Position numbers and translations under genes: made by a program. A model generated the notes under the pieces. That model was not told the origin of the DNA. It saw only the letters and a program-made list of their open reading frames with translations, and did no database searches. 64,000 nt of DNA from Eledone cirrhosa (lineage: Eukaryota): contig OZ024741.1 in NCBI GenBank assembly GCA_964016885.1, positions 115,196,001 through 115,260,000 of the forward strand, in the 5' to 3' direction. Each line of letters starts with the position of its first letter. Position 1 is the stretch's first letter. Shown piece after piece: positions 11,034 to 31,815 of the stretch.

Positions 11034-11523
11034 GGGAGAAAGAGAGGGACCGGGGGGGGGGAGATAATTAGCAGCAAGATAGAGTGCCAGGCAGACAGAG
11101 ATACAAAGCGAGAATCGGGTGCGTGGAAATGTTGATAGCATTAGATATATAAATAGATATAGGTTGTCTTATCACTCATGATATATTCGATCCAATTATA
11201 TATATTTCCTCCTATTGCTATTTCAAGTGCATTGACAACGTAATCCCAGATATATGGACAATTTCTGCGAATTATCATAAACGTATTGACTTTTGCATTG
11301 TCAGATATATTAACTTACATTATCAATGGAATAGCTTCTGATATTCTTCGGAATATGTCTTAAAATAGATTGCTTTGCTGTTTTCATAATATCAGCTTAT
11401 GTAATAGAAGGAAGTAGATAGTAATCTCATCCACATGTATCTACGATACGATTATATATATATATATATATATGATAATAAGGGCGCTGCGGAGTTGCAA
11501 ATGGGTTACATATGAAAAAAGTT

Positions 11524-11627
11524 TGTCCTTCATCAGTGATCTTCCAACTATCATAGGCATTTCATCGCTTTAAAGACCATATACCTCCGGTTGGTGCGAG
11601 CAACGGCTAAAAAAAGTCGTTGGGACA
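11524..11627 (-). ncRNA. Reverse-order (pseudoknotted) hammerhead candidate, family P1
   Basis: Reverse complement of the motif at 12366-12469. Confidence 0.65.
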
Positions 11628-12365
11628 CGTAAATAAAGAGGACACGAGGGTAAACAAACAAAATGGTGAAGCAACAGAAAGTGAGGAAGAAGGAGACAAG
11701 TCCCAGATTTCTATGAATTTAAGTTCTGTGAAATCGTGAACGAGAGAATAAAGACCATCAAACCTGGTTGAAATGTGAGCAAGGAAGGAATTTCGCACAG
11801 GTCTAACGGGAGGAAGAAGGGGTCTGGTCTGCGAATTCGGTAAACATAAGTTCTGTGAAATCGTAGACGAGAGAGAAAAAATTCCGACCAGCTTGGCCGA
11901 GAATGTGAGAGAAAAGAATTACTCACAGGTCAAACGGGAAGAAAGGGGAGGAGGAGGGGTAGTGACAGAGAATGAGTGAGTGAAGGGTGAGGAAGAGGCT
12001 AGCTAGAAAGGGTAAAGATACATAGAACGAAAAAGACGGTGTAGCAGCAGAGGAAAAAATATGTGTAAATATGATAATAAGGGCGCTGCGGAGTTGCAAA
12101 GCTGGTCGGAATTTTTTCTCTCTCGTCTACGATTTCACAGAACTTATGTTTATCAAATTCGCAGACCAGACCCCTTCTTCCTCCCGTTAGACCTGTGCGA
12201 AATTCCTTCCTTGCTCACATTTCAACCAGGTTTAATGGTCTTTATTCTCTCGTTCACGATTTCACCGAACTTAAATTTATAGAAATTTGGGACTTGTCTC
12301 CTTCTTCCTCACTTTCTGTTACTTCACCATTTTGTTTGTTTACCCTCGTGTCCCCTTTATTTACG

Positions 12366-12469
12366 TGTCCCAACGACTTTTTTTAGCCGTTGCTCGCACC
12401 AACCGGAGGTATATGGTCTTTAAAGCGATGAAATGCCTATGATAGTTGGAAGATCACTGATGAAGGACA
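12366..12469 (+). ncRNA. Reverse-order (pseudoknotted) hammerhead candidate, family P1
   Basis: GGTAT-A-TGGTCTT ... GCGA-T-GAA-ATGCC ... AAGATCA-CTGATGA-A-GGACA; stems I and III pair, with a K-turn in stem III. Confidence 0.7.
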
Positions 12470-12981
12470 AACTTTTTTCATATGTAACCCATTTGCAACT
12501 CCGCAGCGCCCTTATTATCATATTTACACATATTTTTTCCTCTGCTGCTACACCGTCTTTTTCATTCTATGTATCTTTACCCTTTCTAGCAGTCTCTCTC
12601 TCTCTGTTAGCCTCTTCCTCACCCTTCACTCACTCATTCTCTGTCACTACCTCTCCTCCTCCTCTTTCTTCCCGTTTGACCTGTGAGTAATTCTTTTCTC
12701 TCACATTCTCGGCCAAGCTGGTCGGAATTTTTTCTCTCTCGTCTACGATTTCACAGAACTTATGTTTACCGAATTAGCAGACCTGACCCCTTCTTCCTCC
12801 CGTTAGACCTGTGCGAAATTCCTTCCTTGCTCACATTTCAACCAGGTTTGATGGTCTTTATTCTCTCGTTCACGATTTCACCGAACTTAAATTCATAGAA
12901 ATCTGGGACTTGTCTCCTTCTTCCTCACTTTCTGTTGCTTCACCATTTTGTTTGTTTACCCTCGTGTCCCCTTTATTTACG

Positions 12982-13084
12982 TGTCCCAACGACTTTTTTA
13001 GCCGTTGCTCGCACCAACCGGAGGTATATGGTCTTTAAAGCGATGAAATGCCTATGATAGTTGGACGATCACTGATGAAGGACA
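12982..13084 (+). ncRNA. Reverse-order (pseudoknotted) hammerhead candidate, family P1
   Basis: Second tandem copy of 12366-12469. Confidence 0.65.
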
Positions 13085-13108
13085 AACATTTTTCATATAT
13101 ATATATAT

Positions 13109-17662: not shown

Positions 17663-17959
17663 ATAATAATAAATTTGAAGACTAATATCCAAAGAGGGCT
17701 CGATAAGGATAAATATATATCAAATATATAAGAAACGTAGAGCAAATATTTATTAAAATAACAGATTAAAGTTTAAGCAAAGAATCACTGCTTTCAACCT
17801 TAACGGGATCTTCTGAAACTAATAAATATTTGCTCTACGGTTCTTATATATTTGATATATATTTATCCTTATCGAGCCCTCTTTGGATTTTAGTCTTCAA
17901 ATTTATTATTATTACTATTTGGCTCCCTCGGTTGAGCACTCTACTGACTTATATTCATC

Positions 17960-20089
17960 ATGCAGAAACAACATCTGAATATTTCTACAAAGAACATACC
18001 CGTACCAAGCAGGAAAACATACCTAAAACTCCTGATACAGAAAACAGACGCGTTCATTAAAAGGTTGCGTTGGCGTGCCTTTTATTTCGATAATCCGCGA
18101 AAAGCAGACAACAAACAGGATAAATTTGGATTTAAAACCTATAATAACCCCCCGTGTAACCCAGCATTGCTACCCTTCGAAAATGATGTTTTGGAACTCA
18201 TTCGGAGTATCAAATTTCGGAATAGGAGCAATTCCTTCCAGCAAGAACTGAAGAATAGAATTCGTTCTATTAAGGATTCTAATGCCGTGCACGTCCATTC
18301 CGACAAAACTGGCAACCTATATCAAGTGGAGCGCAGTACTTACCATCAACTACTACATAATGCTGTAACTAAGGATTACCGTAAAACTAATCGGTGCGTC
18401 ATCAATGAAATCAACGATGCTGGGTTTATAATCACACCTGATCTCAACATCCTGGACCGGACCGAACCTCCGGACCCCATTTCTCCCCACTTTACCCTGA
18501 AGGATCACAAATCCAATTTTCCGAACAACCCCTCTTTTCGGCTTATTAACCCTACGAAGTCCGATTTAGGCAGACTTAGTAAAACGATTCTTGATAGAAT
18601 TATACCTGAAATTAGAAGTTTGGCCCCTCTTGCACTGTGGAACAATTCCTTCGCGGTGATTGATTGGTTCAACGGCATATGTAACAAGGAACATTGCCGT
18701 TTTATCCAATTCGACATCAACAATTACTACTCCTCCATCACTTTACCACTTCTCCTTAGAGCTATCAATTTCGCTAAAACACTCACAGTGGTTAAGGATT
18801 TCGAAGTTGATGTCATCCTAAATGCCCGAAAGTCGGTGATTAATTTCGACGACTCTATTTGGATTAAAAAATCCAATAGTACCTCATTCGACGTGAGTAT
18901 GGGCGCCTGTGATTCTGCGGAGGTTACTGATCTTATCGGCCTTTTCCTTCTTTTCTCTATCAAGGATGAATTCCCCAACGCGGGCGGTGGTTTGTACCGT
19001 GACGATAGTCTTTTGACCATGACTAAGTGCGGACCTCGTGCTTGCGACAGGTTCAGAAAAGAACCCACAGCCTTCTTTAAAGGCTTCAGCCTCTCTATAC
19101 AGGTTGAGGCCAATCTCTCAGTCGTTAATTACCTCGACGTTTCCCTCAATTTATTGAATGGGTTGTATTACCCGTATAGAAAGCCGAATGATACGCTTAA
19201 TTACATAACTAAGCATTCCAACCATCCTGCCAGCATAACCAAGAACCTGGTAAGAAACGTTTCGTTGAGGCTTTCCCGTCTTTCCACCAACGAGCGTATT
19301 TTCAACGACCATTCCACTTATTACAATGAAGCTCTTGCTCGAAGTGGATTTTTCGATAAGGTAGCATATACAGAGTACGAAAATAGACCTAGAAGAAATA
19401 GATCCCGTCGCATTTGTTGGTATAACCTACCATATAATATGGAGGTGGCCACACCTTTAGCTAAGATCTTTCTTTCCCTTATTACGAAGCATTTTCCCCC
19501 TACACATAAATATAGTAAACTTTTTAATAGAAATACTATTAAAATTTATTACTCTACGACTCCTAACCTTGCACATAACATCACAGCTTCAAATTTAGCT
19601 AATCTACCTAGCCGTAGGAACACGTGCAACCCTGTAGTTAGTACTAACTGTAATTGTAGGAATCGGGTTGATTGCCCCCTATCCGGGAAATGCCTCTCTA
19701 GTAACATTGTCTATAAATGTAAGGTTGTAACACCCACGTCCCGTAGGGCCTACATAGGGTTAACCGCCAATAGATTCAAGCAGCGGCTTTACATGCATAC
19801 CCATTCTTTTCGTTACCCTCTAAGAAGGAATATGACGTCACTCTCAGCTTATATCTGGAGTCTAAAAGACAACCACACCCAATATAAGTTACACTGGGAG
19901 ATCCTAGCTAGGGCTAGATCGTATAACGGAAAGAAAAGACCATGTGACCTCTGCGCCGCTGAGGCCCTGGAAATACTCTACGCCACAGACCACATCTTAA
20001 ACAAAAAATATGAGGCAATTTCGGCTTGTAAACATAAATTGCACAAAACTTTCCTGTATTACAGCCCCACGTTATACCCTAACGGATAG
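17960..20089 (+). CDS. PLE polyprotein, reverse transcriptase plus C-terminal GIY-YIG endonuclease (709 aa, Naiad-like)
   Basis: STKNIPVPSRKTY N-terminus; TLKDHK..RLINPTKSDLG; RT motifs FDINNYYSSI, FDVSMGACDSAE and GLYRDD; CNCRNRVDCPLSGKC; IVY..AYIGLT..FKQR; CDLC. Confidence 0.93.
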   Translation: MQKQHLNISTKNIPVPSRKTYLKLLIQKTDAFIKRLRWRAFYFDNPRKADNKQDKFGFKTYNNPPCNPALLPFENDVLELIRSIKFRNRSNSFQQELKNRIRSIKDSNAVHVHSDKTGNLYQVERSTYHQLLHNAVTKDYRKTNRCVINEINDAGFIITPDLNILDRTEPPDPISPHFTLKDHKSNFPNNPSFRLINPTKSDLGRLSKTILDRIIPEIRSLAPLALWNNSFAVIDWFNGICNKEHCRFIQFDINNYYSSITLPLLLRAINFAKTLTVVKDFEVDVILNARKSVINFDDSIWIKKSNSTSFDVSMGACDSAEVTDLIGLFLLFSIKDEFPNAGGGLYRDDSLLTMTKCGPRACDRFRKEPTAFFKGFSLSIQVEANLSVVNYLDVSLNLLNGLYYPYRKPNDTLNYITKHSNHPASITKNLVRNVSLRLSRLSTNERIFNDHSTYYNEALARSGFFDKVAYTEYENRPRRNRSRRICWYNLPYNMEVATPLAKIFLSLITKHFPPTHKYSKLFNRNTIKIYYSTTPNLAHNITASNLANLPSRRNTCNPVVSTNCNCRNRVDCPLSGKCLSSNIVYKCKVVTPTSRRAYIGLTANRFKQRLYMHTHSFRYPLRRNMTSLSAYIWSLKDNHTQYKLHWEILARARSYNGKKRPCDLCAAEALEILYATDHILNKKYEAISACKHKLHKTFLYYSPTLYPNG

Positions 20090-23526: not shown

Positions 23527-25570
23527 TTAAACCATATTTAATGTTGGTCTATATTTTTCAATAAACATATTTTCCTTATTTATTCGTATTTGTTCTGTTG
23601 TAATGTCAGCGCATAGGTAAAATGGGAAGACTTGGAATTTGGGTGTCTTATTACTTGCGCATATGTCTAGATATGCGCTTAGTGGTATCTGTCTCGTGGT
23701 TGGATCTCGTAATTGTTGGCGATGAACTGTCATTCTGTTTCTGATTGTGAGTTTAGTTTGTCCTATATAATCTTCATTGCATCCTTTACATTTAATGGCA
23801 TAAACTAGATTTTTTGATGAGCAAGTGAAGTGATTTTTTACAGTAAAATTTTGTCCTGATTTAAATGTATACGTATTGCCTTCAATGAAGTGAGTGCAGG
23901 TTCCACAATTAGAGCGACCATATTTTTTGACACTTGGTTGTGGGTTTGTGGTAGGTAATTTGGCATTGGTGAGTAATGTTTTCAGTGATTTCGGTTGTCT
24001 TTTGCTTTTGATTATTTTGTGCGTTTCAAGGGCTTTTTTCATTCTTGGGTTTTGTTTTAGTAGTGGGATGTTCTTGTGAATAGTATTGTAAGCTTCCGCA
24101 TTTCTTGGGTTGTGTGTTGAGATATATGATAGAATATTGGACGTACCTTGAATTTGTTTCTGTTTTCGTAATCCATCAATGCCGATTGCTTTAGCCCTTT
24201 CTATTCCATTATTCATTAGTAATGGAGGGTAGAACTTCCTTTAATTCTTGAAGTCTTTTATTTCGCGTTTCATAATTGGAGACAATTGTGCAAATTATTC
24301 TTAATAGGTTAAAAGGAATGTTCGTCTTCGAGTGCTTTGGATGGTTGGAGGTGAATAGCAGGTATTGTTTGGAATCTGTTGGTTTGTAGTGTATGTCAGT
24401 TTCAATATTTGTGTCTTTTTTTAAGATTAAGATGTCCAGAAATGGTAATTGATCTTGGCTGTATTCCATTGTGAATTGGATGTGGTTATTGATGCCGTTA
24501 ATTACATTTTTGAAATCCTTCAGTTGGTCGGGTGTGTGGGACCAAAGAATGAGACAATCATCCAATTAGCGTTTCCAATTCTCTGATAAATATTTGTGGA
24601 AGTTCAATCCGTATTTTGATTTGGACTTTTCATATATCTGGACTTCTAAGTATGCCATGACTAAGTTGGCATAGATTGGAGCGGCTTTTGTACTCATCGC
24701 AGTCCTCGATATTTGCTTGTAAGTACTGCCATCGAAATCAAAAAAATTGTTCGGTAAGATAAATTTTAATCCGTCGGTGATGAAGCTTATTTCTATTCTG
24801 CCAGGTATATTCTCACTGGGATATTTCTCTAGCCAGAATCCTATTGCTTCTAGTCAGTATTGGTATGGGATCGTTGTGTAGAGATTCACTACATCGAAAT
24901 ACACAATAATAGTGTCGTTGTTGACATGTTTGAGGTGGTTTAAGAGGTCCCATTGTGGGCTCGCTACAATTGGTCTTAATTTAAGGTGTGTTGGGTATTG
25001 TGTGTTCACGCAGGCTGAGGTGGATTGTTTACAGTCATCGTTAATTATTTTACACTTGTGGATCTTCGGAAGTCCGTAAAGGTTGCTGGTTTTGTATTCA
25101 AAATGTGTTAAATAATCGCGTTCCTTTTTAGTTAAGTCTTCCTGGTATCGACAAATCAGTGTGTTTAATTTGGTCATTGTTTTTGATTGCTGGTAGTTTT
25201 TTACTCTTTCATAGCAAATAGTATTTTGTAAGAGAGAGAACATAGAATTTTTATATTTTTCAGCCTCCATAATGACAACAGTACTTCCCTTGTCCGCTTC
25301 CTTAATTATAATGTCCGTATTGTTTTTTAGCTCATGGATAATCTCCCATTCCCTTCGACTCGTGTTGGGTTTGGGTTTAGGTTGCGGTAGTTCATGGTAT
25401 GGGAAAGTAGCTATGTGGTCACAAAATTTGTCCAGAACTCTGTTTCTACATTTTGTTGGGTTGTAGCTGCTTTTATTCCATACAATTTATTGGTCGTTAT
25501 TCTCCTTATCAGCAAATTCCTCTGTGAGACGTAATTTTCTACAGAAGTGTGAGATATCGTCATTTATCAA
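23527..25570 (-). pseudogene. Disrupted PLE RT + GIY-YIG ORF
   Basis: LYGLPKIHK, LRPIV, FDVVNLYTTIP, DDCLILW, LPFLDI, YKPT, NLVYAIKCKGCNEDYIGQT; split by stops and frameshifts. Confidence 0.9.
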
Positions 25571-26850: not shown

Positions 26851-27830
26851 GACGTAAAATAAGAAAATTTTAAAATTAACTTACTTACTAAAATTTTCAC
26901 TCCAACTAATTAGTTTCTGTAAGGGAATAAATATAGTTACGCAACGCAACTATATAGTGCCCTGAAATCTAGTCCCCGCTTGCTTTTTTCCATCCACTGA
27001 ATTATTATTTTTATATGGGTTCCTAGTGTCCGCGCATTGCCTGGGAACTTAGCTGAGAATAGACTCCCTGATGACTTAAGGATTTCTCTATAGTTGCGTT
27101 GCTAACTATATTTATTCCCATACAGAAACTAATTAGTTGGAGTGAAAATTTTAGTAAGTAAGTTAATTTTAAAATTTTCTCATTTTACGTCTTTCATATA
27201 ATTGTTCTGCATCCCCTTGCATAGAACTACAAAGGTAATAAGACATAACATATATTTGCTAGCATGAGTATACATCTGTATACATATGTTGGTATATATA
27301 CTAATTCTCCATATTTATCTCCAAATTATTTGTTGAGCAAAACTTGCCGAAATTTACTGCTATGGTTCATGATAGTAGAAAGGCTCTTGTCTTATCACCA
27401 CTCCACTCCTCACTGATTAACCTCAGTGTCACGTGATTGATTCTTTAGAGTTTGCCACTGACCAAGTAGGCAGTGAATTTTTTCAGTGTCCTGGAATCTA
27501 GTCCCCGCTTGCTTTTTTCCATCCACTGAATTATTATTTTTATATGGGTTCCTAGTGTCCGCGCATTGCCTGGGAACTTAGCTGAGAATAGACTCCCTGA
27601 TGACGTAAGAATTTCTCTATAGTTGCGTTGCGTAACTATATTTATTCTCTTACAGAAACTAATTAGTTGGAGTGAAAATTTTAGTAAGTTAATTTTAAAA
27701 TTTTATTATTTTACGTCTTTCATATAATTGTTCTGCATCCCCTTGCATAGAACCACAAAGGTACTAAGACATAACATATATATTTGCTAGCATGAGTATA
27801 CATCTGTATACATATGTTGGTAGATATACT
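26845..27830 (+). repeat. Non-coding ~530-bp tandem unit (about 1.6 copies) with 5' inverted piece and one hammerhead per unit
   Basis: 26970-27305 repeats at 27495-27830; 26845-26957 is the inverse of 27087-27198. Confidence 0.9.
27592..27673 (+). ncRNA. Type I hammerhead (second copy at 27063-27143)
   Basis: ACTCC-CTGATGA-..TATAGTTGCG/CGTAACTATA..-GAA-ACT-AATT-AGT-T-GGAGT; palindromic stem III. Confidence 0.85.
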
Positions 27831-30546: not shown

Positions 30547-30647
30547 GTCCCTCATCAGTGATTTGCCAACGGTCATTGGTATTTCATTGCATTAAAGATC
30601 ATATACCTCACGTTGGTGCAATAATAACAAAAATAAGTTATTAGGAC
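30547..30647 (-). ncRNA. Reverse-order (pseudoknotted) hammerhead candidate, family P2
   Basis: GTCC-[TAATAAC/GTTATTA]-TTGCA-CCAACG-TGA-GGTAT-A-TGAT..TGCAA-T-GAA-ATACC-AATGAC-CGTTGG-CAAATCA-CTGATGA-G-GGAC. Confidence 0.65.
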
Positions 30648-31081
30648 AATTAAAACGCGTAAAGCGAGTGAGACAAGTAAACAACACAGGGGAAAGCTAA
30701 CCGAAGATAGGAAGAAACACAAGCTACATAGTTATTCTATCAGTATAAGCTGGGTGAATATATGAGCGATTAAGAAATAGACCTTTCGCGATGTATCCGA
30801 TGTGAGAACGAAGGAAAATCGTTTTCGTGGCGAACGGGGGGAAGTGAGAAGGGGAGAAACAGTGAGTGAGTGAATGGAAGTGCGAGGAAGTGGTCAGTAG
30901 AGAGAAAGTGTTAACTGACATGACAGAGGGGACGAAAGAAAGTAAGAGAAACAGAGAGAACGAGGGAACAGTAAGAGAGAGAGAGAGAGAAAAACAGAAT
31001 CGCAGTTTAGGTAAATATATGTGAAAAATATGGGGAGAAGAATACTGCATGGTTGCACATGGATAACATGTTATAAAATGA

Positions 31082-31182
31082 GTCCCTCATCAGTGATTTG
31101 CCAACGATCATAGATATTTCGTTGCATTAAAAATCATATACCTCACGTTGATGCAATAATAACTAAATTAAGTTATTAGGAC
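31082..31182 (-). ncRNA. Reverse-order hammerhead candidate, family P2 copy 2
   Basis: Stem I TGATTT/AAATCA; G-C closes stem II; substitutions give G-U pairs. Confidence 0.68.
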
Positions 31183-31611
31183 AATTAAAACGCGTAAAGC
31201 GAGTGAGACAAGTAAACAACAAAGAGGAAAGCTAACCGTAGATAGGAAGGGCACAAGCTACATAGTTATTCTGTCAGCATAAGCTGGGTGAATATATGAG
31301 CGCGTAGAAAATAGACCTTTCGAGATGAATCCAAATGTAAGAAAGAAGGAAATTGTTTTCGTTGCGAACGGGGTGAAGTGAGAAGGGGAGAAACAGTGAG
31401 TGAGTGAGTGGAAGTGTGAGGAAGAGGTCAGTAGAGAGAAAGTGTTAACTGACATGACAGAGGGGGCGAAAGAAAGTAAGAGAAACAGAAAGAACGAGGG
31501 AGCAGTAAGAGAGAGAGAGAGAAAAACAGAATTGCAGTTTAGGTACATATATGTGAAAAAATGGGGAGAAGAATACTGCAGGTTGCACATGGATAACATG
31601 TTATAAAATGC

Positions 31612-31712
31612 GTCCCTCATCAGTGATTTGCCAACGGTCATTGGTATTTCATTGCATTAAAAATCATATACCTCACGTTGGTGCAATCATAACAAAAATA
31701 AGTTATTAGGAC
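31612..31712 (-). ncRNA. Reverse-order hammerhead candidate, family P2 copy 3
   Basis: Same motif with a 6-bp stem I. Confidence 0.65.
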
Positions 31713-31815
31713 AATTAAAACGCGTAAAGCGAGTGAGACAAGTAAACAACACAGGGGAATATATATATATATACTGTATATGTATATAAGTAAATATGTT
31801 TTCCTAACATATTTA

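Follow-up and report, generated by a model that had tools for sequence, protein, structure and literature searches.

The kink-turn (K-turn) at positions 12399-12449 of the forward strand is probably, with a likelihood of about two in three, an RNA-only hinge in stem III of a hammerhead ribozyme of S-G-C order. According to a model built on conservation and approximate geometry, it would fold in Mg2+, bend by about 130 degrees, and so let stem III, at its far end, meet stem I and helix c through linkers of one nucleotide each. The ribozyme would then cleave between 12413 and 12414, and the cut would release 615-nt monomers, which could be templates for a Naiad-type Penelope-like reverse transcriptase. 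The protein 15.5K/Snu13 could bind such a K-turn without being required for cleavage. As a motif the K-turn is well known, and this one adds a case to it. The ribozyme represents a variant of type SGC, marked by its split core, its kinked stem III and its place in an animal retroelement.

The K-turn, the hammerhead core and the surrounding helices

The features discussed below are collected in Table 1. The window is the whole 64-kb stretch of DNA that was analyzed, and it holds three K-turn copies of a repeat named P1 and three of a second repeat, P2. The P1 unit is a 615-bp, non-coding, TA-targeting Penelope-like repeat.

Table 1. Positions in the window of the K-turn, the ribozyme around it, the host repeats and further hammerhead cores
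Feature	Position	Strand	Basis
P1, 5'-truncated partial tandem, 1.6 units of 615 bp, ends in (TA)n	12096-13101	+	sequence
Second P1 ribozyme copy: K-turn 13014-13064, predicted cut after 13028	within 12096-13101	+	sequence
Inverted P1 copy, K-turn 11544-11594	11460-12100	-	sequence
P2, three tandem units (about 530 bp), K-turns 30566-30616, 31101-31151, 31631-31681	30558-31715	-	sequence
Helix a 5' strand GTCC, hairpin b (12371-92), helix c 5' strand TCGC 12394-97, linker A12398	12367-12398	+	covariation, Naiad consensus comparison
K-turn non-bulged strand = stem III 5' strand	12399-12412	+	sequence, covariation, position table
H17 (A12413), predicted cut 12413/12414, stem I 5' strand	12413-12419	+	hammerhead-core analogy, H17 count, covariation, junction starts
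Linker TTAAA, helix c 3' strand GCGA 12425-28, T12429, core GAA 12430-32	12420-12432	+	subfamily rows, covariation
K-turn bulged strand = stem III 3' strand	12433-12449	+	sequence, covariation, position table, genome-wide count
Linker A12450, stem I 3' strand 12451-56, core CTGATGA 12457-63, variable N 12464, helix a 3' strand GGAC	12450-12468	+	subfamily rows, covariation
Canonical minimal type I hammerhead cores, other Penelope-like elements	17401 (+), 16271 (-), 22170 (-), 48165 (-), 4371 (+)		sequence

Read from the letters, stem III consists of a C helix, a 3-nt bulge, tandem G.A and A.G pairs and a second (NC) helix. The non-bulged strand runs CCAAC (12399-403), C12404 (position 4n), G12405 (3n), G12406 (2n), A12407 (1n) and GGTAT (12408-12); CCAAC-C is the 5' strand of the NC helix, and GGTAT, a strand of the C helix, ends in U16.1. 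The bulged strand opens with ATGCC (12433-37), which comprises A15.1 and the C helix, and continues with TAT (12438-40, L1-L3), G12441 (1b), A12442 (2b), T12443 (3b), A12444 (4b) and the NC helix strand GTTGG (12445-49). The bulge follows a 5-bp helix, and its length of 3 nt is constant in 20/20 subfamily representatives. In this copy 3b.3n is U.G, -1b.-1n is C:G and 4b.4n is an A.C mismatch. The pairing of CCAAC-CG-GA-GGTAT with ATGCC-TAT-GA-TA-GTTGG, proposed in a preliminary description of this DNA, is confirmed and agrees with the standard K-turn consensus at every defining position, namely a 3-nt bulge 5' of G1b A2b, tandem G.A pairs in register and an NC helix. Additionally, -1b.-1n is not G:C, as the published folding rule demands (PMC8191799). 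With the base composition of the window, the letters G, A, G and A would fall at four fixed places by chance with a probability of 0.0035. The minus strand likewise carries the P2 variant named in the same description, CCAACG-T-GA-GGTAT with ATACC-AAT-GA-C-CGTTGG, at 31631-31681 and 30566-30616, both with C.U at 3b.3n, and a drifted third copy at 31101-31151 has U.U.

The box C/D motif (RUGAUGA with CUGA) is not matched by the 12399-12449 copy, which reads AUGAUAG/CGGA, and Rfam returned no match at gathering score within the window. RNAfold, a program blind to pseudoknots and K-turns, gives the ribozyme a z of -0.73 and pairs A12407 with T12438 instead.

A complete hammerhead core surrounds the K-turn in the non-circular order S-G-C: the cleavage block (GGTAT-A/TGGTCT, the slash marking the predicted cut), then the GAAA block (12430-37), and then the CTGATGA block (12451-63). 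The hallmarks of a type-SGC core are all there, with CUGANGA, GAAA, the A15.1-U16.1 pair and H17, in the order S, G, C; H17 is A or C in 20/20 representatives, and stems I and III both covary among them. The continuous stem II of type-SGC hammerheads is not present in the window ribozyme. Upstream, TCGC at 12394-97 is the partner of the strand before GAAA (helix c), and GTCC at 12367-70 that of the strand after CTGATGA (helix a). Because the two strands of stem II pair with these separate upstream strands, with hairpin b between them, stem II is replaced by a four-way junction. What the preliminary description calls stem II is thus no plain helix. A direct pair between 12429 and 12464 holds in 16/20 representatives and is one pair long only. 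The 1-nt linkers are A12398, leading to helix c, and A12450, leading to stem I; A12450 could pair with T12420. P1 and P2 suggested a further helix, in which the TAA linker would pair with bases following GGAC; it was dropped, since the other subfamilies do not keep it.

Conservation and geometry of the predicted kink in stem III

The core pattern GAAA..CTGATGARGGAC has 15,103 matches in the genome versus 9 in reversed controls, and a pattern with a pyrimidine after the core adds 860 matches versus 32. From the fetched loci, 327 rows were parsed with overlapping loci left unmerged, and 294 of them hold at least 26 of 32 pairs. Alignment A1 consists of 20 hand-picked subfamily representatives in 102 columns. 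On the K-turn reading of the preliminary description, homologues should keep both GA dinucleotides, and both stand in register in 13,578 of the 14,990 genomic copies of the central pattern (about 91%), with none in the reversed-pattern controls. This retention is mostly a mark of recent amplification. Overall identity within the genome is 84%, and 61 of the 102 columns are as conserved among the representatives as the GAs (at least 18/20), among them the TAA linker and some of loop b, so that the invariance of GA alone proves little.

Covariation carries more of the argument. The six-helix model leaves 96.9% of the cells paired across the representatives, and 19 of 34 pairs have changed on both sides, versus at most 49% paired and 4 pairs with double changes when the model is slid out of place. 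The two helices that flank the K-turn loop covary right up to it. Double changes affect 5/6 pairs of the NC helix (96.7% paired) and 2/5 pairs of the C helix in these representatives, as well as 5/7 pairs of hairpin b, 5/6 of stem I and 1/4 of helix c. Helix a is invariant within the genome and changed in the Naiad consensus sequences, on which its support therefore depends.

Within the K-turn, the representatives vary at certain positions and hardly at all at others. G1b and A2b are kept in 20/20, A1n in 19/20 and G2n in 18/20, while -1b is C in 20/20 and -1n is G in 19/20. The variable positions are L1 with three states, 3b with four and 3n with three; 4b and 4n also vary, and L3 is U in 16/20 and G in three. 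The pair 3b.3n drifts through 8 combinations, with Watson-Crick pairs in 0/20 and G.U in 1/20; a permutation that ignores relatedness expects 4.8 Watson-Crick pairs (P 0.002). One single copy in locus L105, outside A1, has U-A there. The sole subfamily-level change at 2n is to U, which is the exception described for Kt-23 (PMC2790904).

More distant relatives were compared by eye, and this comparison comprises two closely related consensus sequences and one locus. At the 3' ends of Naiad_Obim and Naiad_Ovul the C helix again has 5 bp, the bulge is 3 nt long with U as its last base, and GA/GA is present, all set in other helix sequences. Locus L313 has the same C helix length, U-ending 3-nt bulge and GA/GA, and most of its paired positions differ. 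This locus (L313:708-816, minus strand) is a divergent single copy near the Naiad_Obim design, with C before GAAA and GAU as its bulge; no RT-like open reading frame (ORF) of at least 110 aa lies in the 7 kb upstream.

What such a kink would achieve can be estimated from a crude axis model, which takes 2.8 Å per pair and assumed angles in place of atomic coordinates. With a straight stem III its far end and that of stem I lie 53-65 Å apart; a 120-degree bend brings them to 32-50 Å and a 50-degree kink to 12-22 Å, and the linkers can span about 31 Å. The suggestion of the preliminary description, that the K-turn would fold stem III back, is supported by this rough model together with conservation, covariation, a distant homologue and the natural alternatives described below.

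Relatives of the ribozyme solve the same geometry differently. Three coral Naiads have a straight 10-bp stem III without a K-turn and linkers of about 13 and 20 nt. The Q family of the same genome (195 pattern matches versus 1 in the control) forms the same ribozyme without a K-turn and has a pyrimidine-rich bulge of 4-6 nt on the opposite strand, the 5' strand of stem III. Among published Naiads, the entry at place 31 has a plain 3-nt bulge without tandem GA and 1-nt linkers, and the entry at place 37 combines a stem III of 10+5 bp with a 1-nt bulge and 2-nt linkers. Unless the distal helix of the latter opens, it is at odds with a strict requirement for sharp kinking, and a sharp kink is thus not always needed. 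Because the relatives vary in this way, a bend or a long linker appears as the shared need and the K-turn as the solution of one lineage. The Q family (L314-L350) represents a second superfamily of the ribozyme, with a GC-rich helix c, C11.1 and C17. A scripted test flagged 2 of 26 Q-type rows, L339 and L341, as K-turns, and both were rejected because the second helix is out of register; the same test missed the K-turn of L313, owing to a C.A mismatch.

Two readings would do without a true kink. It is very unlikely that the loop is merely a flexible asymmetric bulge, in which GA/GA persists by shared descent and any 3-nt bulge would suffice. The identity of 84% across the genome, the plain bulge at place 31 and a subfamily, P3, which tolerates U at 2n together with U at 3n, fit that reading; however, Naiad_Obim and Naiad_Ovul, whose flanking Watson-Crick positions have mostly changed, retain GA/GA, the length of the bulge and the spacing of 5 bp, and both the constant C at -1b and the lack of Watson-Crick pairs at 3b.3n follow K-turn rules. 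A softer 120-degree bend, moreover, reaches only at the edge of the model. Extremely unlikely is a strand-swapped dimer between tandem units or between molecules, to which the monomer geometry that calls for a kink would not apply. Many insertions contain one ribozyme only, and a single 102-nt copy suffices to draw all six helices, even though copies often stand in tandem and the place-37 Naiad joins short linkers with the absence of a kink. Lunse et al. (2017) reportedly described dimeric cleavage of Penelope-associated hammerheads.

Possible protein dependence, predicted cleavage and the host repeat

The preliminary description also proposed that cleavage could depend on an L7Ae-family protein such as 15.5K/Snu13. 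The folding rules reported for K-turns bear directly on this. With G at 3n or C at 3b a K-turn folds in Mg2+ alone, and with a Watson-Crick pair or G.U at 3b.3n it does not; the U.U of box C/D likewise does not fold in ions alone (PMC4382518). At -1b.-1n, C:G is best for folding and U:A makes a weak folder (PMC8191799). P1 has G at 3n and P2 has C at 3b; for each of them the rules predict folding without help, as in riboswitch K-turns and in contrast to that of U4. The 12399-12449 copy, with its U.G, has neither the Watson-Crick pair nor the G.U at 3b.3n that would mark a U4-type K-turn, and the protein-dependent U4 signature, G-C at this place, occurs in 0/20 representatives. Subfamily P3 has U at both 2n and 3n, and has therefore lost G2n without a compensating G at 3n, and yet it was amplified; A.U in the context of U at 3n is not predicted to fold in ions (PMC2790904). 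The ion-folding rule covers only 9/20 representatives.

A protein-gated ribozyme, in which the K-turn stays open until 15.5K/Snu13 binds and cleavage depends on the host protein, is therefore unlikely, given the ion-folding predicted for P1 (U.G with C:G) and P2 (C.U) and the amplification of P3. The Q-family and coral ribozymes without a K-turn speak against it as well, as do the absence of the U4 signature and the G at L3 in three representatives. Evidence for it lies in the subfamilies: U.U, as in box C/D, stands at 3b.3n in 7/20 representatives and in both Naiad_Obim and Naiad_Ovul, which also have the weakly folding U:A at -1b.-1n (PMC8191799), and subfamily L054 reads AUGAUGG/CUGA, which matches box D fully and box C in all but one letter. 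Furthermore, L3 is U in 16/20, and the G1b and G2n that L7Ae reads are kept (PMC3884654). Tertiary contacts can also fold a K-turn (PMC3651934). For the 12399-12449 copy and for P2, protein-dependent cleavage is thus not supported: the rules predict folding in Mg2+ alone, sister families manage without a K-turn, and P3 without G2n. Binding of the protein to the K-turn is in itself likely, the U.U subfamilies with their likeness to box C/D may leave room for it, and it possibly serves a purpose other than cleavage.

The junctions between copies were compared with the predicted cut. All 34 head-to-head junctions found, with 68 arms, were used: the start lies at offset -3 or beyond in 61 arms, where a uniform model expects 58% of the arms, and 22 of the 61 start within one base of the predicted cut. 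Arm starts number 20 at -3..0 versus 4 at -7..-4; a few arms were mis-extended, their family not being among the references. Stalling of the reverse transcriptase at RNA structure could produce such starts as well and mimic a cut. Junctions with TA repeats were rejected as proof of cleavage: of 21 loci counted by eye, 9 start at the predicted cut, the TAA linker accounts for 7, and the others lie between these two places (2) or upstream (3); the cut and the TAA linker are both TA microhomologies.

The predicted cuts after 12413 and 13028 would delimit a monomer of 615 nt and place the bulged strand near its 5' end and the non-bulged strand at its 3' end, an arrangement also seen in terminal box C/D motifs. 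The accumulation of RNAs with such terminal motifs is reported to need 15.5K (10.64898/2026.08.03.742641). The K-turn could accordingly be kept mainly as a landing site for 15.5K after cleavage, clamping or protecting the monomer ends or favoring circularization, and the box C/D-like subfamilies would suit this. We give this little credence: the minimum free energy (MFE) fold of the monomer leaves its ends unpaired, sister families have spread without a K-turn, and, the GAs apart, subfamilies do not share the letters of box C/D. A combined role is rather doubtful too. Here the K-turn would both close the split core of a Naiad-type ribozyme and serve as a handle for host protein, with 15.5K/Snu13 tuning cleavage in the U.U subfamilies; after the cut it would join the monomer ends, and the RNA would pass as a snoRNP, protected and circularized. 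The RNA-only hinge remains the preferred reading, and a natural coupling of K-turn and ribozyme would be a ready scaffold for L7Ae-responsive switches.

The host repeat behaves like a Naiad. In the fetched loci, insertions are 5'-truncated, form partial tandems and inverted pairs, and run into (TA)n; the ends of those listed fall on two fixed points some 45 bp from each other, and TA repeats or, in inverted pairs, the partner copy come next, except for two cut by a locus end and one stopping inside the unit. The habits of Naiad-type elements are thus all seen, including (TA)n targets, 5' truncation, tandem and inverted copies, and a tail. The P1 unit lacks an ORF with an N-terminal GIY-YIG and RT, none is linked to the ribozyme in the fetched loci, and a search of the genome for a degenerate Naiad RT motif gave 0 matches. 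ORFs near the ribozymes were rejected as the autonomous partner, as they belong to other retroelements separated by TA repeats. As no linked Naiad ORF was found in these searches of the genome, the P1 repeat is taken as a probable non-autonomous derivative of Naiad, not Naiad proper.

Several further observations concern the repeats and their surroundings. The P1 unit contains an internal duplication of about 140 bp with about 73% identity (window 11683-11948, 12119-12310 and 12666-12926). A tandem array of P2-type units of about 515 bp extends over some 90 kb (L106-L130, G000:C1:81.55-81.64 Mb), with a recurring variant that breaks the first pair of stem I. A pattern that excludes the usual end of stem I returned mostly point mutants and one long array, with no new family, and the contigs of sequencing runs X1 and X4 showed the repeat and its variants only. 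Elsewhere in the window, the ORF at 17948-20086 resembles a Hydra-clade RT by eye, with no Pfam match, and 23530-24240 (minus strand) carries GIY-YIG. At 27068 and 27597 (plus strand) and in L292 and L297-L310, other tandem repeats contain a CTGATGA core for which a canonical GAAA partner is not obvious; they are possibly further permuted or decayed ribozymes.

Comparison with known systems

Published type-SGC hammerheads, including HRIMA-1, share with the window ribozyme the S-G-C order, intact CUGANGA and GAAA, an NUH site, a short connection between stem I and the strand before GAAA, and an extra base after the core (PMC10085705). They are described from metatranscriptomes only, and in them stem II is plain and stem III both plain and short (PMC10085705); the window ribozyme differs in residing in an animal genome, in having a four-way junction for stem II and in extending stem III through a K-turn. 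Eckert et al. (2023) noted the difficulty of reconciling the crystal structure with short links where stem III has its far end (PMC10085705), and the words "kink" and "k-turn" have 0 occurrences in their text and supplement. The present family gives one natural answer to this puzzle of a permuted hammerhead with almost no linker at the far end of stem III. The natural alternatives (K-turn, opposite-strand bulge, plain bulge and long linkers) can be swapped in a single construct of 110 nt. In the literature searched (titles and the starts of abstracts, with most subscription journals outside), type SGC is mentioned only by its original paper, and a K-turn in a natural small self-cleaving ribozyme is not reported. 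Pattern scans of metagenomes and viral contigs gave no S-G-C case among the matches listed (at least 118 and 11 stretches), which are chance matches or a canonical type I hammerhead repeat. This canonical repeat recurs at contig ends in several metagenome assemblies (L163, L165, L174 and many more) and is probably a host repeat.

Naiad elements have in common with the window repeat their (TA)n targets, 5' truncation, partial tandems, an inverted 5' copy and a tail of 30-45 bp (10.1101/2021.04.23.441226). By eye, the 3' ends of Naiad_Obim and Naiad_Ovul share the six helices of the window RNA, its hairpin loop and its K-turn (PMC8557442 supplement). This likeness suggests that the animal is an octopod. 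The window repeat differs in being without an ORF, and its autonomous partner was not located in the genome searches. Craig et al. (2021) reported Naiads without a hammerhead, and the note "HHR_half_core" stands 8 times in their metadata (10.1101/2021.04.23.441226; PMC8557442). Many of the Naiad consensus 3' ends in that supplement are non-circularly permuted hammerheads, of S-G-C order in coral, cephalopod and other entries and of C-S-G order in several entries around the nematode Naiads (PMC8557442 supplement); Eckert et al. gave two CSG examples only (PMC10085705). Naiads, published as devoid of hammerheads, thus carry them in an order missed by standard searches. Naiad_Mmer and the entry preceding it share a structured 3' motif without CTGATGA, perhaps a different class of ribozyme (PMC8557442 supplement). 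Animal non-LTR retrozymes are likewise non-coding tandem units with one hammerhead each, proposed as non-autonomous Penelope-like derivatives (10.64898/2026.07.22.740005). They were defined and searched by type I descriptors in 35 genomes, with no mollusc as the text describes them (10.64898/2026.07.22.740005), and such descriptors miss the window ribozyme because they cannot match the S-G-C order.

Standard K-turns, such as Kt-7 and those of the SAM-I riboswitch, U4 snRNA and box C/D, have the C helix, 3-nt bulge, G1b.A1n, A2b.G2n, NC helix and C:G at -1b.-1n in common with the window motif (PMC8191799, PMC4382518), and the protein-free riboswitch K-turns also share its non-Watson-Crick 3b.3n (PMC4382518). 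In contrast to them, the strands of the window motif flank a predicted self-cleavage site in a pseudoknotted ribozyme, 4b.4n is A.C, and 3b.3n drifts within the family. K-turns inside a catalytic RNA are described for archaeal RNase P RNA, where L7Ae binds them (PMC4245976). However, archaeal RNase P is a large trans-acting RNP with L7Ae as a subunit (PMC4245976), whereas the window RNA is a small predicted self-cleaver, whose K-turn is predicted to fold unaided.
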